Below are positions 9,974 through 61,112 of a DNA stretch of 64,000 nucleotides, piece by piece. The first letter of the stretch is position 1. Every line of letters starts with the position of its first letter. Origin of the DNA: a virus. The stretch lies in IMG/VR virus record IMGVR_UViG_3300025009_000052; one strand, written 5' to 3'. The position numbers and the translations under genes were made by a program. The notes beneath the pieces are model-generated. The model was not told the origin of the DNA, made no database searches, and was given only the letters and a program-made list of their open reading frames with translations.

Positions 9974-10035
9974 TTTATAATTAAAATAATAACAATCTTT
10001 AAAGATATATCTACCTAAATAATTAAGAGGATAAG

Positions 10036-17544: not shown

Positions 17545-17882
17545 GCGCCTCTATCTACCCTAAAACGGAGTTTATCCCCCACATTTAAAGAAAAGGTCAT
17601 TGTTATTTTAGTTCTAGTTCCGGTTCCGACCCAGTTGTAGTCGAAAACATCTTGAACTCTATCTCCGTTAAAGTATACTTCTAGATTATCACCGTCGTAA
17701 GTACCTGAATTTGGTAATGTAATTTCATCCCCCGACTCACAATCGGCTAAATTAATTTCATTTGCCCCAGAAGCGCCACTTTCAACTACGATTAAATAAT
17801 CATCATAAATAGTAGGTGTTCCACTTTCATCCACCATTCTTGGCAATCCAGAAACTAAACGTAGAAATTTTCCCACAAACAC
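17541..17882 (-). CDS. Small virion structural protein, inverted relative to the tail operon
   Basis: GTG start with GGAG RBS. 'ITLP....LEVYFNG....DY....TKITMTFSLNVGDKLRFR' resembles a domain in 10036..13248. Confidence 0.6.
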   Translation of the reverse strand: MFVGKFLRLVSGLPRMVDESGTPTIYDDYLIVVESGASGANEINLADCESGDEITLPNSGTYDGDNLEVYFNGDRVQDVFDYNWVGTGTRTKITMTFSLNVGDKLRFRVDRGA

Positions 17883-17982
17883 TCCATTAATACAACTTAT
17901 AAGATTAAAGATTACTATACACCAGTCAATAATCTAGAATGGCGATTATCCTAATAGTCCAGAATAATGATAATCTTCAATC

Positions 17983-18042
17983 ATAATATAGGTATATTTA
18001 TAATATAGGTATATTTATAATATAGGTATATTTATAATATAG
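17983..18042. repeat. Tandem 17-bp direct repeat (ATAATATAGGTATATTT x3.5)
   Basis: Exact copies at 17983, 18000 and 18017, plus a partial copy at 18034-18042. Confidence 0.95.
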
Positions 18043-18106: not shown

Positions 18107-21016
18107 ATGGCATCAGCGACAAAAACAGATCTTAGACAGTTAGTCCATAGAGCACAATTAGACCAACTAACAACTAGCGCTCTATATACAACTGCAATTA
18201 CCGGTGGAAAACCAGCTAATAGTACAGAAGCTGATAATCTATTAACTTCGGTTAATTCTGAGCTAACTAATCCTTTAAGATTATACCCAACCGACCCTAC
18301 CGCAGATAGGGTAGTCCATGTCGGTGCCATAACAGTTGTGAATCCAGAAACAGCTAAAAACAGAATAACCACAATGATTAATAAAGCTATGCCAGCTTTT
18401 ACTGGGGCCACAATTACATTGCCTAGTACTGCAAATGGAGCAAGTAATATAGTTGTTTCAGTAGGTGACGATATTGTAAATTATGATCAAACCGCATCAA
18501 CATTTGTAAAATGTGGTGTTTGGTTAAACGATGTTGGTGAAGTAGTATTAAGCTTTGGATCTGAAGGAGCCAGTGCGGCTTTAGCTGGAACCCCTGATTT
18601 TGAGAAGAAAACTCAATTTTTAGGTTATTTTATTATAGAAACAGACGCAAGTCAAAATATCCAAAATATTGAATTTGCAGATATTTTCCAAGTTGAAGGC
18701 GGTGGATCTGGCGGCGGCGGTTTAGATAAATGGGAACCATCCGTTAAATATACAGTTGACGATGTGGTTTGGTATTCAGTAGATCGCAATATTTATGTTT
18801 GTATTACAGAACATACCTCCACAGGTACTTTTGATGAAACTAAGTTTGAATTACTATCTAATGATGGCTATTCAATTACTTTAGGTGAAACAATTGCTGT
18901 AGGTGAGGCCATTTATATTTCTAAAGGTACTGCAAATGGAGATACTGGTAGAACACAAAGCTATGCTTATAAATTAGATATTACCAATGCTAATAGATAT
19001 GATTATGCTGGAATTTGTGTTTATGGTGGTAATGCAAGTGATGTTGGAATTGTTTCTGTAAGTGGAAATATTAAAGGATTTACTGGTTTAACCGGTGGAC
19101 AATTGGTCTATGCTAGTTCAACTGCTGGCGGATGGTCACACACTAAACCAAGTGTTTTGGGTTATAAAATAGTTATTTTAGGAATGGCCGTTGATGCAAC
19201 TCATTTATTAATAAATGGCGGATTAAGTTCATCTAGCGAAACATATACTCTTAGTACAGAAGACGCCGACACCATCCACCTAATTAAAAGTGATAATTTA
19301 AGTTTAATTTCCGAAGTAGATCTCCAAGGTCAACACGCAGATTTCGATGGCGGTGGAACACTCACAGCAGGTGCTTTAACTTTAAGCACTGATGCAGCAG
19401 ATTTACTAAAATCCTCCACCAAAGTCATTGAATACGCCCCTGGTGCTAACGGTCAGAATGATTACTTTGGATTCACTAAAACTATACCACAAGGCTCAAG
19501 AGGACGTTATCTAGGTATTCAGTTTGAAAATAGAATGAGTGCTACTACAATTGATAATGCTTTTAGATTATGTGTTAAACAAAAAGATGGTACAAACGCA
19601 GGACACATTCAATATTTTAATATGCCAGCAGTTTATAATGCCAACGGAGCTGGCAAGACTTTTAAAGAAGCAGCTTATATTTGGGATGATTGCACTGAGA
19701 TCGAATTTGGATGGCAGAATACGGTTACTACCACTACAGTAGAATTATATGTGGATAATATATTGGTAACTAATAGTGCTTTTAAAGATACGAAGTTGAT
19801 TGAAGAGCAAAGTGCTTTTTATTACGGTTATGCTGGTGTTGGATCTACAAATAATAAAATACCTTATTTTAGCAGCGTTGGAAGTAGTGTTGGAAGTGCC
19901 ATATGTACTATAAGTAATAGTTCTACTTTAGGGTTTAGTATAACAGCGTTAAGAGATTGTACAGTATCTATGTCAGCAGACTTTGATGGTGTATATGCGG
20001 GTATAAGTAAAAACTCAACTGAATTAACAACGTCTGTAGTAGGAATTTCTGCGGCAACTAGACTTTCATATGACTACACAAGTGCTTCTTATAGAAGTAC
20101 ACCCTCAGTTAGTGGTGTTAGGTTAGTAGCTGGAGATGTATTAAGACCTCACTTATCTGGAACATCATCAGCTTTAGCACATTTAACTTTTCATGCTCAA
20201 GCCGAAGTAGACGGAGTAGTTCATAGCAATCAACTGCCAGAGAATGATTTTAGTGGAAATATAGCAAACAACGGAACTGCTACAATTACTAGTCAGAATA
20301 GTGATGCTATTGCAAGTGTTAGTAGAACTTCTACGGGAGTAGTGGCTATAACTTTTAAAACAGGAAAGTTCACCGTTGCCCCATCAGTTGTATTAACAAG
20401 CTCAACCACAGATGATAGAATGATGATGTATACCTCATTATCAACTACGGGTGTAACTGTTTATACTAGAAATGGGGGAGCTTCACTTTTTGACTTGCCT
20501 TTTAGTATTCATCTACAACGCCAATTCCCTGACTACAAACCTTTGACCGGAAATATAATAACCCCTTCCATTTTGACGGCAACATTATTTAGTACAGATT
20601 ATGTTACAGCATCTAGTACATTGGGAGCTAGTGTAACTATTCCTATTGACACGTTAGAAGGTAGCCCAATTGCTGTTATTTCTAATGATCAGTTTTCTAT
20701 TCCCAGTGGTGCCTACAGAATAGATTGGTTTACTTCATTTTCCGACGGAAGTTCTTCTAATGGAGAGGGGTCTGGACATTCATATTTATACAACATAACT
20801 GATGCGGTCATTACTAAGAAAGGTTCGGGGATTAAAACAAACGGATCGGGAACTACCGGAGACGTTACAGTCGGGACAGCATATGTAACTATTAGTGCTA
20901 CAAAAACATTTGAATTGAGGGGATATACAGGCACTTCTGGTATGGCAGATTACTTATTTGGCTACAACTATGGGGCTGGATTAGGAACAAACATTACTAT
21001 TACTAAATTAAAATAA
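18107..21016 (+). CDS. Tail fibre/receptor-binding protein with a CBM5/12-like module
   Basis: Gly linker GGGSGGGG followed by 'WEPSVKYTVDDVVWY....YVCITEHTS' (CBM5/12-like). Ser/Thr/Gly-rich beta C-terminus. Confidence 0.65.
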   Translation: MASATKTDLRQLVHRAQLDQLTTSALYTTAITGGKPANSTEADNLLTSVNSELTNPLRLYPTDPTADRVVHVGAITVVNPETAKNRITTMINKAMPAFTGATITLPSTANGASNIVVSVGDDIVNYDQTASTFVKCGVWLNDVGEVVLSFGSEGASAALAGTPDFEKKTQFLGYFIIETDASQNIQNIEFADIFQVEGGGSGGGGLDKWEPSVKYTVDDVVWYSVDRNIYVCITEHTSTGTFDETKFELLSNDGYSITLGETIAVGEAIYISKGTANGDTGRTQSYAYKLDITNANRYDYAGICVYGGNASDVGIVSVSGNIKGFTGLTGGQLVYASSTAGGWSHTKPSVLGYKIVILGMAVDATHLLINGGLSSSSETYTLSTEDADTIHLIKSDNLSLISEVDLQGQHADFDGGGTLTAGALTLSTDAADLLKSSTKVIEYAPGANGQNDYFGFTKTIPQGSRGRYLGIQFENRMSATTIDNAFRLCVKQKDGTNAGHIQYFNMPAVYNANGAGKTFKEAAYIWDDCTEIEFGWQNTVTTTTVELYVDNILVTNSAFKDTKLIEEQSAFYYGYAGVGSTNNKIPYFSSVGSSVGSAICTISNSSTLGFSITALRDCTVSMSADFDGVYAGISKNSTELTTSVVGISAATRLSYDYTSASYRSTPSVSGVRLVAGDVLRPHLSGTSSALAHLTFHAQAEVDGVVHSNQLPENDFSGNIANNGTATITSQNSDAIASVSRTSTGVVAITFKTGKFTVAPSVVLTSSTTDDRMMMYTSLSTTGVTVYTRNGGASLFDLPFSIHLQRQFPDYKPLTGNIITPSILTATLFSTDYVTASSTLGASVTIPIDTLEGSPIAVISNDQFSIPSGAYRIDWFTSFSDGSSSNGEGSGHSYLYNITDAVITKKGSGIKTNGSGTTGDVTVGTAYVTISATKTFELRGYTGTSGMADYLFGYNYGAGLGTNITITKLK

Positions 21017-21792: not shown

Positions 21793-22362
21793 TTAACTCC
21801 TCACTAGTCCCTTAAACTTTCTAAGCACATCTACCGTTAAGTGTGTATCTACTCTGGCATTATGTAGTGACTCTTCACTTATCTCAATTCCCATATGTTT
21901 AGCCAAAGCGTTTAATCCCCCTAAATTATCATCTGGAATTAAACCACTTAGTTTTAAAAATTGTCCTATCGTACCTGTATCTAAAGTTCTATACGATACA
22001 TAATGATTAAAAGACTTTAGTAATTGATATGTAATAAAATCTATATCAAATTTTACATTGTGCCCAATCGGAATCAACAAACTACACCCTTGATTGCTAT
22101 GTTTAGATAAGAATTCTCTCAATAAATAACCGCCCTTACTATAACCAATAGCTACCTTATCATGTTCTAATAAATTAATCTTATTTACACCAAGTGCTTC
22201 CCCACTGCATATATAATTGCCATCATTTGGTTTAACACTTAATTCCAAAGAATCTGTCAATATTAAATCTTTAGTATAAACACCAAAATAAACAGTTAAT
22301 AGGGAATGTACTTTAGGATCTGTTCCACCCGTTTCACAATCAAATGCTAAAAATTTATTCAC
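21793..22362 (-). CDS. DEDDh 3'-5' exonuclease (DnaQ/epsilon-like), copy 1
   Basis: ExoI FDCETGG, ExoII GHNVKFD, ExoII-III LDT, ExoIII HNARVD. GTG start at 22362 with GGAGG RBS. Confidence 0.85.
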   Translation of the reverse strand: MNKFLAFDCETGGTDPKVHSLLTVYFGVYTKDLILTDSLELSVKPNDGNYICSGEALGVNKINLLEHDKVAIGYSKGGYLLREFLSKHSNQGCSLLIPIGHNVKFDIDFITYQLLKSFNHYVSYRTLDTGTIGQFLKLSGLIPDDNLGGLNALAKHMGIEISEESLHNARVDTHLTVDVLRKFKGLVRS

Positions 22363-22428
22363 GAATCCCTCCATACTATTATTAAACATATACTAAAAAC
22401 TACCAACAATAGGGTTATTACAGTAGCA

Positions 22429-35010: not shown

Positions 35011-38000
35011 TCAAATAGATTCTGCTTTTATTTGTATCCGTATAATATTAGTATAAGGCTTGTCGGGCTTTTTGTAGTAGAAAAAACAACAAACAGCACC
35101 GGCTTTTAGTTCTGGTGGATATGACAATATTCCAGTATCGTAATCTGGCCATAAAACCTTTTCAGATGTATATCCAGAGGAATCCACCACTATCTTTAAG
35201 GCTTTTTTAGACCCATTAGAGTAGGCAAACTCTTCAGCATTTATAATATATCCGAGAACACAAAACCTAAAGTATTGGGTAATATTGGTTTCATCTATTT
35301 TTTGAAGCTGCTCGCCAGTTAAAAGGGGAAATTCTTCACCAAAATTATTACAAATCACAGGATATTGGGGAGTAATGTGAATCTCACCTTCGTAATTTTC
35401 TAAAAAAATCTTAGTTAAATCCAAATTCATAGTCGGAAATATTGATTTTTTAATCTGAAAATCTTTTAACGGAGTCATTCCGATATACAAATCGTTTATT
35501 TTAGATGCTGCTGGGCCCTTTTTTTCGTATTTTTCTTTTAGCTTAACCTGTTTGGGATCTAAAATATCGTAAGAATTAAGCTTTTCTAGATAATCTCTAT
35601 AGATAACGGCGTCTTCAAATTTTTTCATCTTCACTAGTAGACTATCTTTAGGGTCAAATAAAGAATCCAGCACACCCACATGGATTAGTTTTCTAGCAAT
35701 TGCACTACCACATACCTTTTTATTAGCAAAGTCTTGTATAGATTTATAGGGTCTTCCTTCTATTATTTTATTCGCTAGTTTAGCCCCGACCCCAACAATC
35801 ATTGATAACTTGTTTCTAATCTTATTTAAATTATAGTCAATACTCATTTTTTCAGTAGATAGGTTAATATCAGGAGGTAAAACCATATCTCTAGTGTACT
35901 GATAAAATACTTCTTTAATCTCTTTATCTTTAGCATTACTAAGTACTGCTGCCCACCATTCTAGGGGGTAATGGTACTTTAAAAAGGCGCAAGCGTATGA
36001 AATTACGGAGTAACCAACAGCATGACTTTTGTTAAAACCATACCGAGCAAACGTTTCCATCATAGACCAAATTTCGGTCGCAACGTCCCTACCAACTTTT
36101 ATAGTAGCGCCCTCTATAAACACAGGTTTTAAGGAGTCGATTAGTTTCTTTTTCTTTTTTCCCATAGCTATACGAACGTTTTCTGAATCTATAACTGACA
36201 TTCCAGCTAACTCTCGGCATATTCGACTAACCTGTTCTTGGAAAACAATAATACCATGAGTTTCAGGTAGCATTTGATTAAGAATTTCTAAGTGACCCCT
36301 ACTTGTTCCGTTATTTCTCGCCACATACTCCTCGGCCATATTTCTACCAGTTTTTTCGTCAATAAAATCAAGTGGTCCTGGTCGCACTAAAGAGGTTATA
36401 GTGGCGCAATCTAGTATTGATTTTGGCTGTAATCTTTTTACAAAAGGAGTGACCGACTGTGTATTTAGTTGGAAAACACTTTCTGTTTTTCCACTACCTA
36501 ACATTTTAAAAACATTTTGGTCTTCTGGTAAATCCCAGATGTAAGTTTTAGTTCCGTTATGTAAAAAATAACCAGTTTCTATTGTGCCACAATCTTTTAT
36601 AGTTTTATTACATTTAGGACATATTAGGTTGGCAGCCTGGTCATGTAGGCAAATTGGTTCCAAACACCCGTCCCCTGACTCTTCAGTCCAGCCATCCTCT
36701 TTAAACATTTCAGGATCGCATTGTTTACAACCATAACTACCACTTTCTGGATGTTGCCAACCAATACACTGTGGTTCATTCGTTTTTTTAGCATTAATAT
36801 AGTCTAAGGCAAACCGTATATCTTTTAACGACTGGACTACTAAAAAATCATATTTAATTAACTTAGCCTCTTCACATTGTTTAGCTTCAGGTTGGGTTAC
36901 TCGATTTACCCCACCTATTTCAAAAACCGGCAAAATATCTTCAATATCACAATCGGCAATTAAATATGAACAAGCATGGCGAGAGTTTTGTCTAGATAGT
37001 GATAGGGCTCTTTTAACTATATCCCACTCTTTTGGCCTTTCAGTGGCATATTTTTGTAAATCATCGTTAGTTTCTAATAGGCCTGGGTGCCAAGTACCCT
37101 CATTATCTTCATATCCAAATACATATTCATTATCATTCACTCCTTGAGGGGTATTAGGGAGTGACTTACTAAAAGCAGCTACCAAATCATCTACCTTACC
37201 ACCATTTATAAATCGATTTGCGTCTAAAATAGCGGATTTAATCCTTAAAAGGGTTCGGGTTGACGCTTGGGCAACTCTTTTTCCGTATGTTTTATATAAG
37301 TACCCACTATTCCCATCTTGCCCAACCAAAGGAGTACGACTTTCAAAGTCCGCATCTATGTCGGGATAATTTCCCTGCTGTATTCTATCTAAGGTTAGGA
37401 ACCTAGCACTAGATAGTCCATATTTAATAGGGTCTAAGTGGGTTATTCCGGCTAGATAAGATATGAGGAATCCACCAGCACTTCCCCTGGCAGGACCGGT
37501 TAAAAACCCACTCTTGGCGTAGAAATCAAATATTTTCTCTATCGGTAAGAAATATGGTATTAAATTAATTACACCATTTTTAGTCAATAAATCAAATTCC
37601 TCTCTAAACTGCTGTACATATTGGGGATTATCCCATTTCATTCTACCTTTTTTCTTAATTATATCAATTAAAAGCTGTTCTGGGTTACCGTCAACCTCTG
37701 GGAGTCGGTAACTATACTTTAACTCAAAGTCTTTGAATCTTTCGGCCCATTGATAGCTGTTTTGAACGGTTTTTTCAATAGCCTTATCGGTAAATCCCAA
37801 TTCAGTTATTAGATATTCTTTAATATCTTCGGTTGAACAAATATATTGACTTGCTTGGAATTGTTTTTCACCACCCAAACGCATATTTTGGACGATTTTA
37901 TCTTCTTTTTCTGAATAATAAGCGTAATTATTAATCAATAGCTTGCCGGCTTGTCCAAATTTCTGGGCTAGAGCCATAATAAACTTATTAGCTTTAGTTT

Positions 38001-38802
38001 GGATATCTCCGGTAGGCATATCTCTAAAGGTATTGATTAGTTTAGCCCCATGAATATCTTGAAATGGCTCAGCTACCTTATATCTAACTTTATTAATATA
38101 GATATAAAGTAGTTTTTTGTGCTTATTTCCCCTTCTAGTTAGTTCAATAGCTGTAGCTTGTTCAAAATAATCAGTTTCTATTCTATCGTTAGCCGGAATA
38201 TAATATTTTTTACCGTTTAATTGGACTTCTACCGTTTCTGACCAATATTGATTGTGTTTATAGGGAACAATAGACGGATAAAAATTATCTTTAAATAATT
38301 CCAATAGCCTTTGATAATATTGCATACCTACACTAGCACTGTTAACTAATAAATGTTTAGTTACAATATCTTCTACGTTGGAATTAGAAACAGTTACGTT
38401 GAATTTGCTTAGGTCCTCGAGGTCCGCCCATGTCCACAAATAGAATTTATGATCGCCAATATACATCTTAGTTCTTTGGGTATTACTACACATTTTGACT
38501 AATTTCTGATAAGCCGGTTGGTCTAAAGCGTGTATTACCAATTTAAAATATTTAACATTTTGAGATGGGGTATTTAAGGCCATAGGACAGTTTGGATCTT
38601 TAAAGAAGATTTCAATACCCAGTATCGGTTTAATATCGCTTTTTTTAGCGTATGAATATGCTTTCAAAGAACAGGACATATATCCATTATCGGTAACGGC
38701 AAAGTATGGTAACCCAAGTTCTTTAGACCGTTTAATCATAGAACTAACTGTAGAGCCGGTCAAATAGCTTTCTGGATGATTACATGTACCGATATGATTC
38801 AC
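35011..38802 (-). CDS. dnaE: DNA polymerase III alpha subunit (family C)
   Basis: PHP domain (AVTDNG, KPILGIE), GPARGSAGG, YPDIDADF, KYDFL, VFQL, IVFQEQ, YGFNKSHA, PPDIN.S, C-terminal OB fold. Confidence 0.95.
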   Translation of the reverse strand: MNHIGTCNHPESYLTGSTVSSMIKRSKELGLPYFAVTDNGYMSCSLKAYSYAKKSDIKPILGIEIFFKDPNCPMALNTPSQNVKYFKLVIHALDQPAYQKLVKMCSNTQRTKMYIGDHKFYLWTWADLEDLSKFNVTVSNSNVEDIVTKHLLVNSASVGMQYYQRLLELFKDNFYPSIVPYKHNQYWSETVEVQLNGKKYYIPANDRIETDYFEQATAIELTRRGNKHKKLLYIYINKVRYKVAEPFQDIHGAKLINTFRDMPTGDIQTKANKFIMALAQKFGQAGKLLINNYAYYSEKEDKIVQNMRLGGEKQFQASQYICSTEDIKEYLITELGFTDKAIEKTVQNSYQWAERFKDFELKYSYRLPEVDGNPEQLLIDIIKKKGRMKWDNPQYVQQFREEFDLLTKNGVINLIPYFLPIEKIFDFYAKSGFLTGPARGSAGGFLISYLAGITHLDPIKYGLSSARFLTLDRIQQGNYPDIDADFESRTPLVGQDGNSGYLYKTYGKRVAQASTRTLLRIKSAILDANRFINGGKVDDLVAAFSKSLPNTPQGVNDNEYVFGYEDNEGTWHPGLLETNDDLQKYATERPKEWDIVKRALSLSRQNSRHACSYLIADCDIEDILPVFEIGGVNRVTQPEAKQCEEAKLIKYDFLVVQSLKDIRFALDYINAKKTNEPQCIGWQHPESGSYGCKQCDPEMFKEDGWTEESGDGCLEPICLHDQAANLICPKCNKTIKDCGTIETGYFLHNGTKTYIWDLPEDQNVFKMLGSGKTESVFQLNTQSVTPFVKRLQPKSILDCATITSLVRPGPLDFIDEKTGRNMAEEYVARNNGTSRGHLEILNQMLPETHGIIVFQEQVSRICRELAGMSVIDSENVRIAMGKKKKKLIDSLKPVFIEGATIKVGRDVATEIWSMMETFARYGFNKSHAVGYSVISYACAFLKYHYPLEWWAAVLSNAKDKEIKEVFYQYTRDMVLPPDINLSTEKMSIDYNLNKIRNKLSMIVGVGAKLANKIIEGRPYKSIQDFANKKVCGSAIARKLIHVGVLDSLFDPKDSLLVKMKKFEDAVIYRDYLEKLNSYDILDPKQVKLKEKYEKKGPAASKINDLYIGMTPLKDFQIKKSIFPTMNLDLTKIFLENYEGEIHITPQYPVICNNFGEEFPLLTGEQLQKIDETNITQYFRFCVLGYIINAEEFAYSNGSKKALKIVVDSSGYTSEKVLWPDYDTGILSYPPELKAGAVCCFFYYKKPDKPYTNIIRIQIKAESI

Positions 38803-39059
38803 TAAACATCTCCGTTTTGTTCAATTTTCTTATCTTCGTAAGGGGAGATTATTCGTCTGTACATTTCTAATTTAGCACCTTCTAGAGCACCTATAGCGTC
38901 ATTAAAGTCCTGATATTTAGCCACATCTCGCTCTATAAACATATAGCAAATGGAGGTGATTAAATAGTTTAGTTCTCCAGCATTTTTAGGAGTATTTTTA
39001 AATATCTCCAACAAAGCTTTATCGAATTTTAATCTATCGTCCTGTTTTATATATGGCAT
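38802..39059 (-). CDS. Conserved small phage protein (DUF6899-like)
   Basis: MPYIKQ.DR...GELNY.IT...GALEGAKLEMYRR...PYED.KI..NGDV signature, recalled from memory. Confidence 0.6.
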   Translation of the reverse strand: MPYIKQDDRLKFDKALLEIFKNTPKNAGELNYLITSICYMFIERDVAKYQDFNDAIGALEGAKLEMYRRIISPYEDKKIEQNGDV

Positions 39060-39691
39060 TATTCCTCCACTATTTCTAATAAAGAACTACCTGACGTAAT
39101 CCCCATTTCATGTTTTTTACTTTTCATCAAAGCCAAAAAAGCTTTATAGACATCGACCGTCATTCTAATATCTTCCTTGGCGTTGTGGGCTTGGCCCATT
39201 GGAATATTAAAATACTCTACCATACTTTCCAACTTACCAAGTTCTTTAGGTAGTATACCAGCCTCTTGAAAAAAAGTCAATATCCTTAATGTATCTAAGG
39301 AATTGTGATGGACATATTTTGACCAGATTTCCCCATCCAACAATTGGTTTTTAACAAAGGGTATATCAAAATCAATATTCTGACCACACGGCCTATAGTG
39401 CCTTCTCTTTTTTGGAATCTTATGTTTTTCCAGTAAGGCTACTAATTTAACGGCTCCTTCTTTGTAAGTAATTGTTTGGGGGTCATTAAGGTGGTCTTCT
39501 AAATTAATACCAGTTACTTGCATTGCTTCTGGCGTAACACAAATCGTGCTAACATCTTCCGGCTTCAATTGGAGATACAACTCATCTATCAGTTCTAAAT
39601 CGTCGTTATATACACCGAAATAAGCTGTTAATAAAGAATGAATAGTAGGGTCAAGCCCTCCCGTTTCACAGTCAAAAAACAATTTTCTCAC
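39059..39691 (-). CDS. DEDDh 3'-5' exonuclease (DnaQ/epsilon-like), copy 2, probable proofreader
   Basis: FDCETGG, GQNIDFD, LDT, HNAKED. Located two genes upstream of dnaE. Confidence 0.85.
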   Translation of the reverse strand: MRKLFFDCETGGLDPTIHSLLTAYFGVYNDDLELIDELYLQLKPEDVSTICVTPEAMQVTGINLEDHLNDPQTITYKEGAVKLVALLEKHKIPKKRRHYRPCGQNIDFDIPFVKNQLLDGEIWSKYVHHNSLDTLRILTFFQEAGILPKELGKLESMVEYFNIPMGQAHNAKEDIRMTVDVYKAFLALMKSKKHEMGITSGSSLLEIVEE

Positions 39692-39924
39692 TAGTCCCTC
39701 ACATTTATTTTAAGTTTTTTTCTAATTTTTCTAATAGCTGCCATAAATATATTATCAACCTCATTGTTTTCTAGTAATAAGACTTTGGCTATTCTATCGT
39801 CCTCAACACCATCAGGATAAGAATCCATAAAAATCTTTAGAGAATTGTTTAGCCGTGGGCAGTAGATAAAATCTCTCTCTTGTTCGATCTTATCTTGTAT
39901 TTTTTTCTTGTCTTTTGGGTTCAT
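39691..39924 (-). CDS. Small protein resembling a stand-alone sigma region-4 HTH
   Basis: 'GVEDDRIAKVLLLENNEVDNIFMAAIRKIRKKL' fits the pattern (T/S)xxEIAxxLxxSxxxVxxIxxxAxxKLR. Confidence 0.5.
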   Translation of the reverse strand: MNPKDKKKIQDKIEQERDFIYCPRLNNSLKIFMDSYPDGVEDDRIAKVLLLENNEVDNIFMAAIRKIRKKLKINVRD

Positions 39925-40289
39925 GGTTTCCTTTTAAATGGAAGTACGGTTTCTCCACCGTACTCGGTTTTAAATTGAGTTAAATATAAATCGTATTTTT
40001 TTAAATTACTATCAATAGAGTTTTGTAGTTTTTTTCTTAAATTGCTGAATTTAATAATATTAGTTCTAACCTCTTCCAGAGCCTCCATTGATTTTTTATA
40101 TTCTGGCAATACAGCTACAATGTCGTCCCGCCTTAATAGGTTAATATTATAGGTTAAATCTCTTTGTAATCTATCCAGATAAAACAGGTCAATTTCAATT
40201 CTATTCAAGTCGTGCTCTAGTAAATTAGTTTCCATCTCCAGCCCTACAATTATTCCTCTAAGTTCTTTTATTTTCTTCTTCAGACGCAT
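39921..40289 (-). CDS. Hypothetical coiled-coil protein
   Basis: Heptad-rich 122 aa. Confidence 0.55.
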   Translation of the reverse strand: MRLKKKIKELRGIIVGLEMETNLLEHDLNRIEIDLFYLDRLQRDLTYNINLLRRDDIVAVLPEYKKSMEALEEVRTNIIKFSNLRKKLQNSIDSNLKKYDLYLTQFKTEYGGETVLPFKRKP

Positions 40290-40326: not shown

Positions 40327-40381
40327 ACTATATACCACAAAAAATAAAAAACCCTCCAATTAGGAGGGTTAGTTTAGAAAA
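40327..40381 (-). repeat. 55-bp exact direct repeat, copy 1 (terminator + class II promoter)
   Basis: Identical to 46812..46866. Contains the AACCCTCC/GGAGGGTT hairpin, a T-run and TTGTGGTATATAG on the - strand. Confidence 0.95.
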
Positions 40382-41616: not shown

Positions 41617-41683
41617 CGTACCATCCTGTTTTTTTATAAAGATTACGATATTTTAAAAAAACACCGTAATCTAACTGCTAATA

Positions 41684-44544: not shown

Positions 44545-46545
44545 CTATTGTCCAATAGAAATAACGTCCGAAATCATTTCTTTTAATTCTGGACTATGGT
44601 CTACCAATATTATTTGTTTACCGCTATCTAATGATTTTAAAACATCTAAATACTGTTCTTTTCCCTCAGAATCCAAACCATCAAACGGTTCATCTATGAT
44701 GAAGAAATTCGCACCCTTACCTACCTTATTTTCAATAACATCAATGACGGCTAAATCTACCGCTAAATCAATTACTGTACGCTCACCACCAGACAATGTT
44801 TTAATGGGAATGTCACTTTCACCGGCTTTAGTTATAATAGCATTTACCTCATCTTTTATGGTGCCAGACTTGTTTTCCTTACATCCCTCAAAAAAGATGC
44901 TGGAATTAGCCATATTATGAACGTTTCCTAAAATAGAAGTGGCCGTCTCACCAATCGTATCCAAAGTCTCTTGAAATATTTGAAGAGTGTATGACTTAAT
45001 CAGTCTTTTAGCTTCTTCCGCAATTATCAGGTTATTTTTTAATTGACACAATGAGTCTTGGATACTAGAAAGCTTTTGCTGCTTTTGGATAATATTTACT
45101 TCAATATCTTCCATTCGTTGTTTGTAAGATCTACAATTCAAATTATAGTTTTGAAGTTCTTTTCCCATAATTTCAATGTCAGTACTTACAGTGTTGAGAG
45201 TGGTCTTGACACTATTGATCTCCCCGTCATATATTTCACTAATTTCTTTTTGTTTTTGAAGAAACAGGTTTTGATCTTTTAGATATATGGAATCAATTTC
45301 TTTTTGAAGATTGCTTAACTTATTTTTTTCTTGAGACAGTTGTTCTTGTAATCCGGCAATTTGAATATCAAAAGAAGATGTGTCTGGCGATTGTAATTGT
45401 TTAATTAAACACTCAATAGATCCTATGTCTTCTAAAAGAAGTGGCTCTTGGTCTATTTTAGACTTTTTTTGTAAAATATCGCTCACCAGATTTTTGATCT
45501 GGGTATCTAATTTGTTAATATATTCTTTTTGATCGTTGCTTGACCATAATTGATTACAGGTAGGACAGCTATTGTTTTCAGCATGTTGTTTTTGTTGTTT
45601 AAAAGTGTTTACGTTAGATACTATACTTTGTATTTCGGTTTTTAGATACTGAATCTTATTCAATTGTTGCTTTTTATCGGATAATTTATTAGACAATTCC
45701 TGTCTTTTCTCAATTACGCTTTTCACTAGGGCGTTTTTTTGATAATTAACCTCTTTAATCAAAGACTCTATTTCCCTAGAAGCACTGAGGTCATATTCAC
45801 ATACTCCTTTTATTGGTTTAGATATTTGACTCAACTGATTTTGCTTATTTTCAATTAGAGACTGGAGCTTAGTAGATAATTGATCTCGTACAAGTCTTTT
45901 TTGTTCTAATAAGTCTCTATCCACAAGACATACCGGTGCTATTTCCCTGTTTTTTATTAAAATCAATTCGTCTATATTTGCTGTTAAATTGATACATTCA
46001 GAGGCTTTTGTATCAATTAATTGGAGGTTATTTTTATTTTTCTCATTAATAAGTTCGATTTTATCTTGATAAGGCTGTAATCCTAATAATTCAATTAAAA
46101 ATTCATAAGTTTGTTTAGCTGTCATTTGTAAGAAAAAACCCCTCTCCTGCTGTGACTTATGTATAATTTTCTTGAAAAGCTTTCTGGGCACCCCTATTAG
46201 TTCGTCCAATTTTAACTCAGCCAAATCAACATTGCCAGATATAGTTTCGCTAGGTAATTTAATAGTAAGTCCATCTTTTTTACTTCGTTCTACAGTAATA
46301 ATTTGATCATTATATTTAAAAATCCCCCTAACGTATATGGGTTTTTTAGTAAATCGACTTTGTAATTGTGTTGCTGGTATGGAATTTACATCTAATAAAT
46401 AGTCCAAAGCGTGGAATATTGTTGATTTACCTACTCCAGACGGGCCATCAATTAGCAATAGGTTACTATGATTACTTAGTTCAAAAACTTGCTCTTCAGT
46501 GAATCTTCCTATGTTGTTAAATATAAGTGTTTGTAAGTATAACAT
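44545..46545 (-). CDS. SbcC/Rad50/gp46-like SMC ATPase
   Basis: GPSGVGKS, Q-loop, coiled coil with CPTC zinc hook, LSGGE signature, IIDEPFDGLD, VDH. Confidence 0.9.
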   Translation of the reverse strand: MLYLQTLIFNNIGRFTEEQVFELSNHSNLLLIDGPSGVGKSTIFHALDYLLDVNSIPATQLQSRFTKKPIYVRGIFKYNDQIITVERSKKDGLTIKLPSETISGNVDLAELKLDELIGVPRKLFKKIIHKSQQERGFFLQMTAKQTYEFLIELLGLQPYQDKIELINEKNKNNLQLIDTKASECINLTANIDELILIKNREIAPVCLVDRDLLEQKRLVRDQLSTKLQSLIENKQNQLSQISKPIKGVCEYDLSASREIESLIKEVNYQKNALVKSVIEKRQELSNKLSDKKQQLNKIQYLKTEIQSIVSNVNTFKQQKQHAENNSCPTCNQLWSSNDQKEYINKLDTQIKNLVSDILQKKSKIDQEPLLLEDIGSIECLIKQLQSPDTSSFDIQIAGLQEQLSQEKNKLSNLQKEIDSIYLKDQNLFLQKQKEISEIYDGEINSVKTTLNTVSTDIEIMGKELQNYNLNCRSYKQRMEDIEVNIIQKQQKLSSIQDSLCQLKNNLIIAEEAKRLIKSYTLQIFQETLDTIGETATSILGNVHNMANSSIFFEGCKENKSGTIKDEVNAIITKAGESDIPIKTLSGGERTVIDLAVDLAVIDVIENKVGKGANFFIIDEPFDGLDSEGKEQYLDVLKSLDSGKQIILVDHSPELKEMISDVISIGQ

Positions 46546-46811: not shown

Positions 46812-46866
46812 ACTATATACCACAAAAAATAAAAAACCCTCCAATTAGGAGGGTTAGTTTAGAAAA
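46812..46866 (-). repeat. 55-bp exact direct repeat, copy 2 (terminator + class II promoter)
   Basis: Identical to 40327..40381. Confidence 0.95.
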
Positions 46867-49572: not shown

Positions 49573-50564
49573 ACACCTTCGGTTAGATTTTTTAAATAAT
49601 CATTTATTTGAAGTTTAGTTACGCCCGCAATTGGTTCAAAATAGCTTTCTAAATATTCTGGAAGTTGGTACAAGCCCTCTCTACTTACCTGAATTGTTTT
49701 ACGATCGGTTGGAACACCCTTAATACTAGCAATTTCTTTATATTTCTTTTTCATGGTTGTTATCCAGGACGTTTTTCCATGAAATTCCAGATAATTACGA
49801 GCAGTATTGGTTAATTCGGGAACTTCTTGGCCCTCATAAATAACATATTTATAGATAGGACTAACGACATTAGCTGTGGATATAAATTTACTAGAAATCA
49901 TAGACCCGTCGTCGTTGTGGTCAAATATCCAAATGCCCTTTTCCGAATTTGCATCCGCCATAGTGTCCCACTTGGGGGTTCCTATATATTGACACTTACC
50001 TATTTGCTGACCTTTATGTATATGTCCTGATATGATCTTATCTTGAGGGATTAGGTTAGGTTCTATGGCGTCTTCAGCATAAAATCCGGTCTCGTAAGAA
50101 GCGCCAGTAAAGGTTTGGTGGGCGACCAACAAAGTAGTAGCTCCTTTATTGTACAAAGTAACACAGTCGTCTAATAATTTTTCGTGATTTTTAGTATAAG
50201 GCGCATATGCAATGTTATTTATGATAGTGGGCGTATTAATAATATGAACATTAGGCCACTTACCATGAAATACATTTAAAGCATTAAATAGTTCTTTTTC
50301 CTTAGACCCAATTTGATCATGATTCCCTACTAAAACTATGATATTTTCTAGCCTACTATTGCTTAATTTAGAAAAAACTGTTAGCCAAAAAGTTTCAACC
50401 TCTACTCTTTTTACGGCATGGTTGTGAAATAAGTCTCCTAGAAACTCTATGGTATCGATATTTTCATTAAAAATTACATTAAATATATAATTCATTAACC
50501 TATTGGCTTCTTCTAGGTTAGTTAATTTAATATGTGGATCGCCGACTCTCAATATCCTATTCAT
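49569..50564 (-). CDS. SbcD/Mre11/gp47-like nuclease
   Basis: GDPH, LGDLFH, GNHD, AHQ, SGHIH, YIGTP. Likely start at ATG 50564. Confidence 0.9.
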   Translation of the reverse strand: MNRILRVGDPHIKLTNLEEANRLMNYIFNVIFNENIDTIEFLGDLFHNHAVKRVEVETFWLTVFSKLSNSRLENIIVLVGNHDQIGSKEKELFNALNVFHGKWPNVHIINTPTIINNIAYAPYTKNHEKLLDDCVTLYNKGATTLLVAHQTFTGASYETGFYAEDAIEPNLIPQDKIISGHIHKGQQIGKCQYIGTPKWDTMADANSEKGIWIFDHNDDGSMISSKFISTANVVSPIYKYVIYEGQEVPELTNTARNYLEFHGKTSWITTMKKKYKEIASIKGVPTDRKTIQVSREGLYQLPEYLESYFEPIAGVTKLQINDYLKNLTEGV

Positions 50565-50862
50565 CGTAAGCCACCACATAGTTAAAATCTAATAGAATAA
50601 ATTGCCTTGAGTCTCCACTTATTTCAAATTTCTGGGTCAAATGTTTTTGAGTATATAGATTTTCTTCTTTTACATAAACATATCCATCTTTGGGTATGGT
50701 AATAACTGAATTACCATAGGTAATCTGTGCGTCTTGCAATACTTTAAGCTTAACTATATTAGCTTTTTGCTGCACAGATGCAAATCCAGAGGTTACTTTA
50801 GTTTGGATTTTTCTTTCTCCAGAGTATATCTCTGTCATTACAAATCCATTTAGTGTTTTCAC
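50557..50862 (-). CDS. GroES-like co-chaperonin
   Basis: 101 aa: MKTLNGFV, mobile-loop-like TKVTSGF, C-terminal F.LL....VVA. Confidence 0.55.
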   Translation of the reverse strand: MKTLNGFVMTEIYSGERKIQTKVTSGFASVQQKANIVKLKVLQDAQITYGNSVITIPKDGYVYVKEENLYTQKHLTQKFEISGDSRQFILLDFNYVVAYDE

Positions 50863-51908
50863 AAGACCACTCCTTTTAGCATAATTATCTTTTTCTCTAC
50901 CATATTTAAATCATGGGACGCATTTATGATTTTATCTATAGAGTCTTTTTTAGTTACAATATCTTCAACATCTTGTTCTGGATCTGGAGTGTTATCGTAT
51001 ATTCCCACGCCTTCTTCTGATCCTCCGTCATAATTATCTTCGGAAATTTTACTATCGGTAGACACATAGCCCACACCATTAAGTAGGGTTCTAATATGGG
51101 ATTCAGAAATCGGTAGTGTTGGTATTTTTTTACCTTCTGTTGCGTCTTTTTCAAAAGACGAATTGACAGCCTTAGTCAGATCCTCAATAGAATCTATTTG
51201 AAGTCGATATTTAAGAGCATTTGCTCTATATAGAACTTTTTTATCTGTAGGGTATAGTCGCAAAAACGTTTTAGAATACTCCTCAATCATATTGCTGACC
51301 ATATTGCCAATACAGGTTGATCGCCACACCCTAGTATAGTCTCCACAATATTTATCGATGCCAGTAATCAAACCACACACACAAATATCTATTAAATCCA
51401 ATAAGTTAAGGTGAGATCTGGGGGTTTTTCTATAAAATAATTTAGCCCTATTAATAGCTAGAGGTAGGTTGTTTTCGATTAAAATTCTTCTAGCTTCTAA
51501 GTATTCGTTATAATAGTGCTGCACCTTTTCTGGTAGTGGCCCGCCCCAATTATCTACTATAAATTTAATTAGCAAATAATTTATTTTGTATCTACCGAGA
51601 TTATTCCCTTTCTTTTCTTTAAAATCAGATATTATCCTATCACTAAATGACGTAAACCTTTCTCTAAAGTAGGGCTTAGCACTTAATATATTGCCACTTT
51701 CGTGTAATATATAGTCTATAAATTTAGCATATATTTGGTTAGTTTTTGCGTATTTTTGGGCATAGTACTGGAACTTACGCTCCAGCGATATCATCAATTC
51801 AACCTGTTCTTTTTGGTCACCAATTAGACCATCATTGTCTATAATTGCTTGGTTGACTTGAATAGCCAGCTCTTGGAATTTTTTATCATATTGATTCTTT
51901 TTACTCAT
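50859..51908 (-). CDS. Sigma70-family factor truncated after region 4.1 (candidate late sigma)
   Basis: 'ARRILIENNLPLAINRAK.F' (2.1), 'LLDLI..CVCGLITGIDKY' (2.2), 'WRSTCIGNM' (2.3/2.4), 'VSTDSKI' (3.2). Ends at 'LNMVEKKIIMLKGVVL'. Confidence 0.75.
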   Translation of the reverse strand: MSKKNQYDKKFQELAIQVNQAIIDNDGLIGDQKEQVELMISLERKFQYYAQKYAKTNQIYAKFIDYILHESGNILSAKPYFRERFTSFSDRIISDFKEKKGNNLGRYKINYLLIKFIVDNWGGPLPEKVQHYYNEYLEARRILIENNLPLAINRAKLFYRKTPRSHLNLLDLIDICVCGLITGIDKYCGDYTRVWRSTCIGNMVSNMIEEYSKTFLRLYPTDKKVLYRANALKYRLQIDSIEDLTKAVNSSFEKDATEGKKIPTLPISESHIRTLLNGVGYVSTDSKISEDNYDGGSEEGVGIYDNTPDPEQDVEDIVTKKDSIDKIINASHDLNMVEKKIIMLKGVVL

Positions 51909-51931
51909 ATATATCTATATACCATATTATT

Positions 51932-53416
51932 CTAATAAAATTGTACAGTTTCACCCGTTTCTTCGTAATATTCTATGCGTTTTTTTAACTGTTGTTCTAA
52001 AATAGGCTGTCCAGTTACCCTAAAGTCGTAAATCATCGTAAAGGGTTTAGGTTTATGAAAAGAAGCATATTTGGAAATTTCTAGTTTTCTGGTAGACCTT
52101 CCCATTGGGCCCTGTTTTGTGACAACTTCAGAACTTCCACCCATTAAATTAATAGTATTGTGTGTGGGGTAAATATTAGTACCCGTAGCAATAGCTTTGG
52201 TTCCAATTAATATCTTACTGTCCCCTCTATTAAACCTATCAACCTGTTCCTGTAAGCTAACCTTATCTAGACCATATAGGGCGGCTTCTGCTTTACTACT
52301 ACTGTGAACATACCCGTAAGGAACTCTTAAAAGCTCAGATACCATCTGGATCTGAGACAGCTCTTCAACCAATATAAGGGTTGATTCTTTTTTAAGTTCC
52401 CAACTAGCATTGGCTATTTTAGCGGCAATTTCTATTATATTGGTGTTATGAAGAAAGTGCTCTCTTTTACACTCAATAGGATCTGTCTTTTTCTTAGTAG
52501 AGGGAGAGAAGGTAGTAATAACCTTAAACTTTAATGGACATAGATATCCTTGGGCAATAGCGTCTTGAATCGATAATGTCCAAACAGTTTTTCCTATGAT
52601 AGAGTACAGCAATATCTCACCCCCGTCTCCACGGCTCTGAGTGGCAGATACAAGAGCTCTATAGGGTATGTTAGCTAAGGCTCCATGACACGTTTTTTCA
52701 AGGGTTTCTGATCCGAATTGATGGCTTTCATCAATTAGCATAGCTTGTTTATCAGCAAAGAACTTATACTCAGGAGACCCCTCTTTAAGCATAGTTAGTG
52801 ACTTACCAATCGCTATCGTAATTGGTTTTTTAATATCTTTTTTTCCATCCCCAAAACCGCCCACCATAAAAGATCCGAAATGATACTCAAATTTTTCTAA
52901 TAATTCCATAAATATTGATCTTGAGGGGGTAGCCACTACTGTTCTTAGCCCCATTAATTGGGCTAACATCAATAAAATCAAAGACTTACCACTACCTGTA
53001 GAAAGTTCGATATTTCCATGTTTTTCGTTAAGTAAACTATTAACTGATCCCACCTGATACAGATATGGTGTTAAATCTAGGCTATTTTGCCATTTATAAG
53101 GTTTAAATTCAGGATATTCGACCAGATTTTCAACAGGAATATCTAATTTTAGATAAGGAACGCTTCCGGGTCTAATGTAGTAACCACCTGAATCTTCAAA
53201 TAAAAGGGTGGTTTTCTTTTGTGATTCTAATTCATTAATTCTATCCTGCCAAGCATCTGGATCTTTATTCCTTAACCACCGCATTTTTTTAACCTTACTA
53301 ATCTGAAAGACGATATCTTTATTCGTAAAGGTTAATTGTTGGCGAACCCAATTGATGTTTTCCTCTGTAAAATTAACTAGATATGCTTTAATAGGCGTTG
53401 TTATAACAATCTTCAT
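51932..53416 (-). CDS. UvsW-like SF2 DNA helicase
   Basis: STGSGKS, DESH, SAT, TGTNI, QGPMGRSTR, IYDF. Likely start at ATG 53416. Confidence 0.85.
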   Translation of the reverse strand: MKIVITTPIKAYLVNFTEENINWVRQQLTFTNKDIVFQISKVKKMRWLRNKDPDAWQDRINELESQKKTTLLFEDSGGYYIRPGSVPYLKLDIPVENLVEYPEFKPYKWQNSLDLTPYLYQVGSVNSLLNEKHGNIELSTGSGKSLILLMLAQLMGLRTVVATPSRSIFMELLEKFEYHFGSFMVGGFGDGKKDIKKPITIAIGKSLTMLKEGSPEYKFFADKQAMLIDESHQFGSETLEKTCHGALANIPYRALVSATQSRGDGGEILLYSIIGKTVWTLSIQDAIAQGYLCPLKFKVITTFSPSTKKKTDPIECKREHFLHNTNIIEIAAKIANASWELKKESTLILVEELSQIQMVSELLRVPYGYVHSSSKAEAALYGLDKVSLQEQVDRFNRGDSKILIGTKAIATGTNIYPTHNTINLMGGSSEVVTKQGPMGRSTRKLEISKYASFHKPKPFTMIYDFRVTGQPILEQQLKKRIEYYEETGETVQFY

Positions 53417-53420
53417 AACT

Positions 53421-53446
53421 ATATATACCACAAAAGCAATCTTTAA
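53421..53446. promoter_or_regulatory. Back-to-back class II (- strand, TTGTGGTATATAT) and class III (+ strand, AATCTTTAA) promoters
   Basis: Both motifs sit within a 33-bp divergent intergenic gap. Confidence 0.6.
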
Positions 53447-53449
53447 TTT

Positions 53450-54262
53450 ATGGAAAACTACATAGATATATCCCATGGCATGGAATTGTGGCCAGATAAA
53501 ATACCGAATCACCGAGAAAATGAAAACGGAATCCATTTTTTAGTGATTTATTATATCCTAAAAGATATAATAGGAACACTAAATCAAGATGATTTAACTA
53601 CCTTCAGAAGAATTGTTTATAATCTACAAACATTTGATACTCAAGGTCAAAAAGTCAAAGGACTTTATGATCGTGGAGCTTACGAATCTTTAAATCCCGA
53701 CAAGACAAATATTAGGACAATTAGCCACGACAATATAAATTCAATCGCTTGTTTTTCTAAGATACTAAACACACCCTATCATAAGGAAATTTACGATCAC
53801 GGTAAAGATAATTGGTGGAGATTTGATAATGTTTATCCAGAAAAACCAAGATGGTCTAGACTTATGCATCCAAGGGACATTATCTTTTGGTCATATTTAG
53901 CTAATAAGTTTTTATCTAAGTTTTTCATATGGGAACCAATGATAGAATGTTTATTAACATGCTATTTTAAATACGATTCTAGACCACAGCTACATGAACG
54001 AATCTGGTATTTTATTACTAGTAAGGAATATACAAAAATAACTGGGATAGCAACTAGCGGGAAATTACTAGCTTTTGTTAGACTATATACTGTAAAAAAC
54101 ACTTGGTTCGGTAAATTAACTTGGAAGCTGTGTACTAAGTTTATCAATAGGGATTTTGAGGAAGGCTGGTTTGGGGTAATATCTTTTTATTTTAAAAATC
54201 CTGATCACCCTATTAATTTACTTGCTAAAGAAATATATAATAACAATAAGGAGATGTTCTAA
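53450..54262 (+). CDS. Hypothetical protein co-transcribed with the endolysin
   Basis: 270 aa, Trp-rich, SHDN motif. TAATG-coupled to the endolysin. Confidence 0.6.
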   Translation: MENYIDISHGMELWPDKIPNHRENENGIHFLVIYYILKDIIGTLNQDDLTTFRRIVYNLQTFDTQGQKVKGLYDRGAYESLNPDKTNIRTISHDNINSIACFSKILNTPYHKEIYDHGKDNWWRFDNVYPEKPRWSRLMHPRDIIFWSYLANKFLSKFFIWEPMIECLLTCYFKYDSRPQLHERIWYFITSKEYTKITGIATSGKLLAFVRLYTVKNTWFGKLTWKLCTKFINRDFEEGWFGVISFYFKNPDHPINLLAKEIYNNNKEMF

Positions 54263-61019: not shown

Positions 61020-61112
61020 TTTTTCTCCAAAAATTAAAGGTCACTAGTTAAAGATTGGTATTATTAACCCAAATACCAATTAAAATCACTATTTTTTCGA
61101 TAAAAAACATAT

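Follow-up and report, generated by a model that had tools for sequence, protein, structure and literature searches.

The sequence analysed is a stretch of 64,000 nucleotides from the IMG/VR virus record IMGVR_UViG_3300025009_000052 (hereafter the window), a piece of the genome of a large uncultured phage, with a G + C content of 34.6%. Two genes on its minus strand are considered here: the gene at 50859..51908, encoding a truncated sigma-70-family factor of 349 amino acids (aa), and the gene at 39691..39924, encoding a stand-alone protein of 77 aa that is a candidate second subunit of this sigma factor. Both belong to a leftward array (about 21.5-53.5 kb) whose genes serve DNA replication, recombination and related functions. 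A preliminary description, made from the sequence alone, had reported these two open reading frames (ORFs) about 11 kb apart and had proposed that their products form a bipartite sigma factor; the coordinates, strand and spacing of both ORFs were confirmed.

The truncated sigma factor and the 77-aa protein

The 349-aa protein is a genuine sigma-70-family factor. A profile built from 26 homologues matched region 2 of solved sigma factors (E-values of 7e-4 to 0.03), PHROG 351 (“RNA polymerase sigma factor”) matched the protein with an E-value of 4.6e-7, and the top Foldseek matches of its AlphaFold2 (AF2) model were all sigma factors (probability about 1.0, E-values from 3e-3); a Pfam scan of the whole protein returned nothing at E <= 1. 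From its N-terminus the protein runs through a helical part, regions 2 and 3, a disordered acidic linker (residues 279-309) and two region-4.1 helices. In the AF2 model (pLDDT confidence score of 76), the region-3 helices are followed by the disordered linker, by helices at 314-331 and 336-344, and then by the end of the chain.

The C-terminal third of the sigma profile was aligned with residues 99-198 (of 239) of Aquifex FliA (1rp3), and this alignment ends in the region 4.1 helix: FliA region 4.1 (“...LPEREKLVIQL” / “...VEEEVIKRELTEKVKEAVSKLPEREKLVIQL”) is paired with the last two helices of the profile consensus (“...vedevikkdllekvleaakdlevierkiirl”). No region 4.2 helix-turn-helix (HTH) was found in the 349-aa polypeptide or in its aligned homologues, which agrees with the earlier statement that the protein ends after region 4.1. 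Homologues of the sigma factor form more than 330 clusters, those listed being mostly of 340-360 aa. The stop directly after “...ErKIIrLKGVxL” is kept in 26 of the 26 aligned homologues, and 20 of the 21 relatives taken from loci stop after “LKGVxL”, the 21st carrying 11 extra residues that still contain no HTH; the sigma factor of Myxococcus phage Mx1 (28% identity) ends in “...EQKLLAMKGVVL” immediately before its stop codon. Because the stop position is conserved in the homologues, the short C-terminus is to be regarded as design and not as a truncation error. Read-through or frameshifting at the sigma stop into an HTH was considered as well and rejected, since the next ORF matches neither profile and the stop is genuine and conserved in position.

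The last sigma helix and predicted docking helix (residues 334-349, LNMVEKKIIMLKGVVL; 50862..50909, minus strand) is supported by column entropy, by the alignment with FliA region 4.1 and by predicted contacts. Column entropy is 0.77 bits over the last 16 residues, close to the 0.63 bits of region 2, against 1.76 bits for the linker (aa 279-313) and 1.90 bits for the helix at aa 314-333, and the 70 residues preceding the last 16 are the most variable part of the protein. The Shine-Dalgarno sequence of the next gene is contained in codons K345-G346-V347, an overlap that accounts for only part of the C-terminal conservation. One sigma homologue of 377 aa (P0108) carries a 31-residue Cys-rich insertion (CxxC...CxxC, zinc-ribbon-like) N-terminal to region 2, at alignment columns ~156-186.

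The 77-aa ORF is a real gene, given its homologue clusters and conserved synteny. Its product has 11 close homologues and, in an exhaustive profile search of representatives, 370 homologue clusters at 50% identity, nearly all of them separate proteins of 60-115 aa; the best 150 are all of 38-115 aa except for one 295-aa fusion. This fusion (P0159) joins in frame a small-protein homologue (residues 9-75) to the DEDDh exonuclease that is normally encoded just after it; it is either a real fusion or the result of a lost stop codon, and represents one cluster of the 370. A word-index search of longer proteins with the 149-member alignment of the family returned no fused form at E <= 0.001, which is weak evidence. 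PHROGs gave nothing usable for the 77-aa protein, and the sole tblastn match to it among 50,697 phage records was spurious (E = 1).

The AF2 model of the 77-aa protein (pLDDT of 87.7) comprises helices 3-15, 29-35, 42-48 and 53-71, the last two forming an HTH of the sigma4.2/LuxR type (residues 40-72; 39709..39807, minus strand). The preliminary description had regarded the protein as consisting largely of a region-4.2-like HTH: this stands, at the level of remote homology, for residues ~40-72, and not for residues 13-37 (39814..39888, minus strand), which hold a different motif, D-x-D-F-I...P-R/K-Y/F-x-N-S-L (I13, D16, D18, F19, I20, P23, N27, S28, L29). This N-terminal module is not sigma-like, and is the most conserved part of the small protein, more so than the HTH (D18 in 96% and S28 in 97% of the family, with F19/I20 and N27 also conserved).

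The 149-member profile matched the HTH of NarL (E = 0.007), residues 200-238 of E. coli FliA (E = 0.019), WhiG and other sigma factors (E ~0.06) and residues 202-236 of Aquifex FliA (E = 0.21). In Pfam scans of the 149 members taken singly, 21 matched HTH_69 and 7 matched GerE. The comparison with Sigma70_r4 (PF04545), put forward earlier as a check, came out in part: 18 of the 149 members matched (best E of 6.8e-5), all of them over the HTH half of the family (model positions 24-50 of 50) and all below the gathering cut-off of 24.1 bits. The nearest named Atlas clusters are viral proteins of 74-79 aa, with PF04545 on 55-83% of their members. Residues 33-74 superpose on sigma domain 4 (sigma4) of SigL, SigW, SigK, SigF and sigmaA with a root-mean-square deviation of 2.3-3.9 A and low Z-scores of 2.4-2.6. 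LuxR-type HTH domains are matched as well at insignificant scores, and in fold searches diverse kinds of HTH domain score equally low. Judged from these comparisons, the HTH is assigned to the sigma4/LuxR class at remote-homology level only.

The second helix of the HTH is acidic in its N-terminal half: positions 53, 54, 55 and 57 are D or E in 56-79% of the 149 members, and residues 52-62 have a mean net charge of -2.7 over these members. In an alignment made by eye, which no tool produced, the family consensus T-E-E-E-V-E stands against T-R-E-R-I-R of sigma70, that is, against R584, E585 and R588, the residues that specify the -35 box (PMC2613000). As the reading positions of sigma70 are conserved glutamates here, canonical -35 reading by the small protein is unlikely, and so is the role of a -35-binding HTH that the preliminary description had implied. 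The small protein lacks two traits of LuxR/GerE proteins as well: the AF2 model ends at the recognition helix, and the DNA-contact face is acidic, not basic.

Co-occurrence, predicted docking and covariation

The profiles of the two proteins abut on Aquifex FliA (1rp3), the sigma profile stopping at residue 198 and the small-protein profile starting at 202 (to 236). Among IMG/VR relatives with the sigma gene, five have a completeness of at least 90%, and each of these five holds a single copy of the small gene (E-values of 1e-23 to 1e-30); it is also single in sigma-carrying records that are 86% and 45% complete, a 165-kb metagenome contig carries both genes, and both of the further contigs reached via the small gene carry the sigma gene. 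Co-occurrence, which the preliminary description had proposed as a check, accordingly extends to every informative relative, and a truncated sigma lacking the small gene, named there as speaking against the pairing, was seen only in two sigma-carrying records that are fragments (26% and 36%). No Sigma70_r4 domain above the Pfam cut-off was found anywhere in the five near-complete relatives.

In Mx1 the small gene was found by profile only (E = 4.9e-11), directly upstream of dnaE. It corresponds to an 80-aa ORF, unannotated in GenBank, at OR576727.2 ~157455-157697 (minus strand; L002:1486-1728, minus strand), with the DNA polymerase III alpha gene on one side and a hypothetical gene on the other, whose 3' end it overlaps if translation begins at the TTG codon.

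A complex of sigma residues 300-349 with the small protein was predicted from alignments of both, in three runs and with three controls. The interface score ipSAE was 0.82 (0.81-0.84 in the three runs) against 0.02 for the best control, a mark of 0.82 being reached by 58 of 80 solved complexes and by 2 of 110 mismatched pairs, so that the prediction came out in favour of the association supposed in the preliminary description. The runs share at least 97% of their contacts, and the pLDDT of the partners is at least 86. Contacts are predicted between sigma residues 326-348, chiefly 337-345, and small-protein residues 13-20, 29-40, 44-51 and 56-71; the interface is made of the hydrophobic inner face of the HTH and of the N-terminal module, and the last sigma helix is placed where region 4.1 sits in an intact sigma4. 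This result indicates compatibility with a sigma4-like assembly, not binding.

Eleven sigma/small-protein pairs were collected for covariation, partly by using the Rad50-like gene between them as an anchor (a single-protein search yielded one distant locus, and a metagenome alignment scan at least one new pair). At the predicted contact between sigma residue 338 and small-protein residue 62, E338 is combined with A, S, G or C62 in 6 genomes, and H, H, Y or N338 with E62 in 4; the remaining genome has P338 with S62, and two acidic residues are combined in none (n = 11 pairs).

Promoter-like motifs and neighbouring genes

An extended -10-like motif, TGGTATATAG, lies before the operon formed by the small gene and the gene of a 122-aa coiled-coil protein upstream of it (40328..40337, minus strand), with no -35 hexamer found. 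A terminator-like hairpin followed by a T run (40350..40370, minus strand) stands after the upstream exonuclease gene and just ahead of this motif. The same 10-mer (51915..51924, minus strand) ends 6 nt before the ATG of the sigma gene, where there is no Shine-Dalgarno sequence, and a third site is at 46813. The minus strand therefore holds three copies against 0.27 expected, a number that none of 100 shuffles attains, and two of the copies precede the two candidate subunit genes. When upstream regions of the window and of 21 related loci were pooled, the 7-mers with the highest enrichment were TGGTATA and TRTGGTA (~8-fold); two relatives have them before the 122-aa gene, and four before the gene of the helicase or of the sigma factor. 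Extended -10 promoters are still transcribed when sigma70 lacks region 4.2 (Kumar 1993, reviewed in PMC2613000). From its letters, TGGTATATAG may be taken as a candidate promoter of the extended -10 (TGn) type, which would fit a sigma factor whose domain 4 does not read DNA.

Sites of the host type (TTGACW-N16-18-TAnnnT) are enriched too, with 20 in the window against 7.6 expected (0 of 100 shuffles reach 20), and precede several minus-strand genes (24920, 29757, 48563, 55667, 56264). Two or more promoter classes thus seem to be in use in this phage.

Several further features of upstream regions were recorded. In the leader of the sigma gene (51909-51931), the lack of a Shine-Dalgarno sequence and a -10-like TATATA ending 7 nt before the ATG suggest that the sigma mRNA is leaderless; several relatives keep this spacing, their TGGTAT beginning 14-15 nt ahead of the helicase or sigma start codon. 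Another motif of upstream regions, (G/C)CAATCTTTA, is found 12-47 nt before start codons at 9993-10001 and 53437-53445 (plus strand) and at 61049-61057, 17906-17914 and 41637-41645 (minus strand), as well as at many related loci; it precedes the gene of a 1070-aa protein at 10036 and the gene at 60063, and at site 9993 it lies within the near-palindrome AATCTTTAAAGAT. AATCTTT occurs in 21 of 138 upstream regions (window and relatives) against 4.8 expected, and in divergent intergenic regions the AATCTTT-type motif stands back to back with a TGGTAT box. The motif (G/C)CAATCTTTA could be a phage-specific promoter or operator. A perfect tandem array at 17983-18042, between the divergent genes 17541-17882 (minus strand) and 18107-21016 (plus strand), consists of 3.5 copies of the 17-bp unit ATAATATAGGTATATTT, which contains AGGTATAT, one base off the promoter-like box TGGTATAT.

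The leftward array includes DnaE (35011-38802), a DUF6899 protein listed between it and the DEDDh exonuclease (39059-39691), the 122-aa coiled-coil protein (39921..40289, minus strand; the stop of its gene overlaps the start of the 77-aa gene in ATGA), a 406-aa phosphoesterase/exonuclease encoded upstream of the latter, a Rad50-like protein (44545-46545) between the small gene and the sigma gene, an SbcD-like phosphoesterase and a helicase (51932-53536). The 122-aa gene adjoins the small gene in most relatives whose flank was recovered, with a 142-aa ORF at the equivalent position in Mx1, and a protein-atlas look-up of its product was uninformative. A second DEDDh exonuclease paralogue of 198 aa (21793-22389, minus strand) shares 42% identity with the copy at 39059-39691.

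A 101-aa gene (50557-50862, minus strand) overlaps the sigma stop in GTGA and has no family match; by eye, and as an unverified impression, its product is beta-rich and GroES-like. A 154-aa counterpart follows the sigma gene of Mx1, a phage that encodes a GroEL homologue. Mx1 is the only named phage relative: the order helicase - sigma - small ORF - phosphoesterase is common to both genomes, and in a tblastn search with DnaE it was the sole full-length relative among cultured phages. No tRNA gene was found in the window, and no homologue of the sigma factor in the bacterial genome contigs scanned.

Interpretation and comparison with known systems

The reading best supported by computation alone is that the two polypeptides together form a phage sigma factor cut inside domain 4, with a probability of roughly 0.6; it rests on the abutting FliA alignments, on co-occurrence, on the lack of any other sigma4, on docking past its controls and on charge covariation. 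The bipartite sigma of the preliminary description is supported in part, in this form, with the reservation that its co-occurrence argument is confounded by shared ancestry. The 349-aa subunit would supply regions 2 and 3, the linker and two region-4.1 helices, and the 77-aa subunit a 4.2-type HTH together with an N-terminal clasp. Sigma helix 336-345 is predicted to pack on the hydrophobic face of the HTH (I45, L49, V56, I59, F60, A63), in the place of region 4.1. From this arrangement we infer that the assembled domain 4 would then sit on the beta-flap of RNA polymerase, that with its conserved acidic surface the assembled sigma most likely reads no -35 hexamer, and that its targets would be promoters of the -10 or extended -10 kind, TGGTATATAG being an example. 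A more specific version is put forward tentatively, as possible and rather doubtful: domain 4 would be assembled non-covalently from the two gene products, and the detached acidic half, expressed from the replication module, would limit sigma activity and so couple -35-less transcription to the replication phase. This would be a sigma4-based counterpart of the gp33/gp55 logic of T4, in a design that the culturable phage Mx1 shares with hundreds of phages from the environment.

Several observations weigh against a partnership of the two proteins. The similarities of the small protein to sigma4 are all under curated thresholds or marginal (E-values of 0.007-0.2), NarL, a LuxR-type regulator, scores slightly above FliA for its profile, and the window's own 77-aa protein has no Pfam match at E <= 1; searches with its model gave no significant match with Foldseek against the PDB (E > 1) or with VIA-align against 48,161 chains (Z up to 3.7). 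The split point is not clean, because helix 29-35 of the small protein itself resembles region 4.1 by eye, so that assembly would give a domain with one additional helix and the break would not fall neatly between 4.1 and 4.2. Co-occurrence is confined to one phage lineage with a conserved core genome, in which partnership and shared ancestry are not separated. The four genomes with E62 may be one clade, and the covariation perhaps a single evolutionary event. The docking pass may reflect the memory that the model has of intact sigma4 domains, a warning that the tool itself gives for the halves of split genes. Gram-positive host promoters typically have extended -10 boxes of the TRTG type too (PMC2613000), and host primary sigma factors use them, so that an assignment of TGGTATATAG to the phage sigma is tentative. 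The small gene never adjoins the sigma gene, lying 10-16 kb away in a replication module whose order (406-aa exonuclease - 122-aa protein - small protein - DEDDh exonuclease, the latter not always present - DnaE) is kept in all relatives; it directly abuts dnaE in Mx1 and in one other relative, and in P0159 it is fused to the exonuclease.

Gene position and the fusion speak for a rival explanation in which the two proteins are functionally unrelated, the sigma factor being -35-blind on its own and the 77-aa protein acting as an HTH regulator or other DNA-binding protein, or as an accessory of DnaE or of the epsilon-like exonuclease (a role like that of theta/HOT). The generic class of the HTH, with NarL as top solved-structure match, would suit such an explanation, as would the activity on extended -10 promoters that the review PMC2613000 reports for sigma70 without region 4.2. 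It is nevertheless judged unlikely: a reading helix that is acidic does not suit an HTH of the classical DNA-binding kind, there is no counterpart of the helix that LuxR/GerE proteins have after the recognition helix, DNA_pol3_theta is not among the 25 Pfam families listed and no theta/HOT structure is among the fold-search matches listed, and the exonuclease fusion is one cluster of 370. The strongly conserved last sigma helix needs a partner, and the docking prediction passes its controls. As to gene position, genes 33 and 55 of phage T4, which encode late-transcription factors, also lie among replication and recombination genes, and position therefore does not decide between the two readings.

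It was also considered that the 77-aa protein might be a sigma4 mimic directed against the host, occupying the beta-flap tip or binding region 4 of the host primary sigma in the manner of AsiA; -35-dependent host promoters would then be shut off, and the -35-independent sigma of the phage would take over. A small acidic protein with a sigma4-like fold and without DNA-reading residues would be suited to this role, the many host-type sites in the window (20 against 7.6 expected) would make a switch away from them meaningful, and docking on the phage sigma is compatible with it. The predicted interface, however, joins the conserved hydrophobic core of the small protein to the phage's own sigma helix, which fits a permanent partner better than a competitor, and the mimic is considered improbable.

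Textbooks treat sigma4 as one compact domain with two tasks, clamping the beta-flap and reading the -35 box. If the two proteins do form one sigma factor, these two jobs would be separated, the detached half having no DNA-reading residues, and a new split point would be added to two-subunit sigma factors. The way in which host RNA polymerase is redirected would be explained for a large phage lineage (more than 300 sigma clusters), most of which is uncultured. A culturable system is available in Mx1, which infects Myxococcus xanthus and whose small gene is unannotated, and naturally split sigma factors would be useful parts for synthetic transcription logic.

In T4, gp55 (sigma2-like) and gp33 (a small acidic co-activator that binds the beta-flap) have been described as a split sigma factor (PMC12867686; bioRxiv 10.64898/2026.10.01.756105). 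The pair described here resembles them in that a phage sigma without a -35 reader is accompanied by a small acidic protein with a gene of its own, for which the place of sigma4 on the flap is proposed, and resembles the T4 late system in its candidate promoters without a -35 box and in the location of the genes among replication genes. Unlike gp55, which has only a region-2-like part, the 349-aa sigma keeps region 3, the linker and region 4.1. Unlike gp33, which is not among the listed profile or fold matches of the small protein, the 77-aa protein has an HTH of the sigma4.2 type; its predicted partner is the sigma factor itself, with which it would make up a complete sigma4 domain; the sliding-clamp link of T4 has no counterpart shown for this pair.

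Likeness to single-chain proteins is partial. The 349-aa protein shares its region 2 sequence and overall fold with primary sigma factors and its region 3 to 4.1 alignment with FliA/sigma28, and differs from both in having no region 4.2 in the polypeptide and no Pfam match at E <= 1 over the whole protein. The small protein is comparable to the NarL C-domain and GerE, with NarL as its best solved-structure profile match (E = 0.007) and a size similar to that of GerE, and departs from them in the missing helix after the recognition helix, the acidic DNA-contact face and the distinct conserved N-terminal motif. With Pol III theta and phage HOT proteins the only links are gene adjacency and the one DEDDh exonuclease fusion. 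The engineered E. coli sigma70 without region 4.2 (Kumar et al. 1993, as covered in PMC2613000) is similarly cut before the 4.2 HTH and still initiates at promoters of the extended -10 (TGn) type, to which the candidates here belong; unlike this laboratory truncation, which has no second subunit, the present one is natural, is conserved in hundreds of phages and is accompanied by a conserved sigma4.2-like protein.

Closest in principle are the two-subunit sigma factors SigO-RsoA of B. subtilis, Sig7-Sig8 of Tn916 and gp33/gp34 of SPO1, in which both polypeptides associate with RNA polymerase (bioRxiv 10.64898/2026.10.01.756105). The division of the sigma function between two polypeptides is shared with them, being predicted here from sequence and docking. 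Each of those systems pairs a region-2 protein with a region-4 protein, whereas the cut here falls inside region 4, between 4.1 and 4.2; here a distance of 10-16 kb separates the two genes, which belong to different modules, and the residues that read DNA are lost from the HTH. No paper describing a sigma pair cut between 4.1 and 4.2 was found in the literature. What is new with respect to the known two-subunit sigma factors is the cut inside domain 4, with a large subunit that keeps regions 3 and 4.1 and a distantly encoded, acidic, sigma4.2-derived small subunit.

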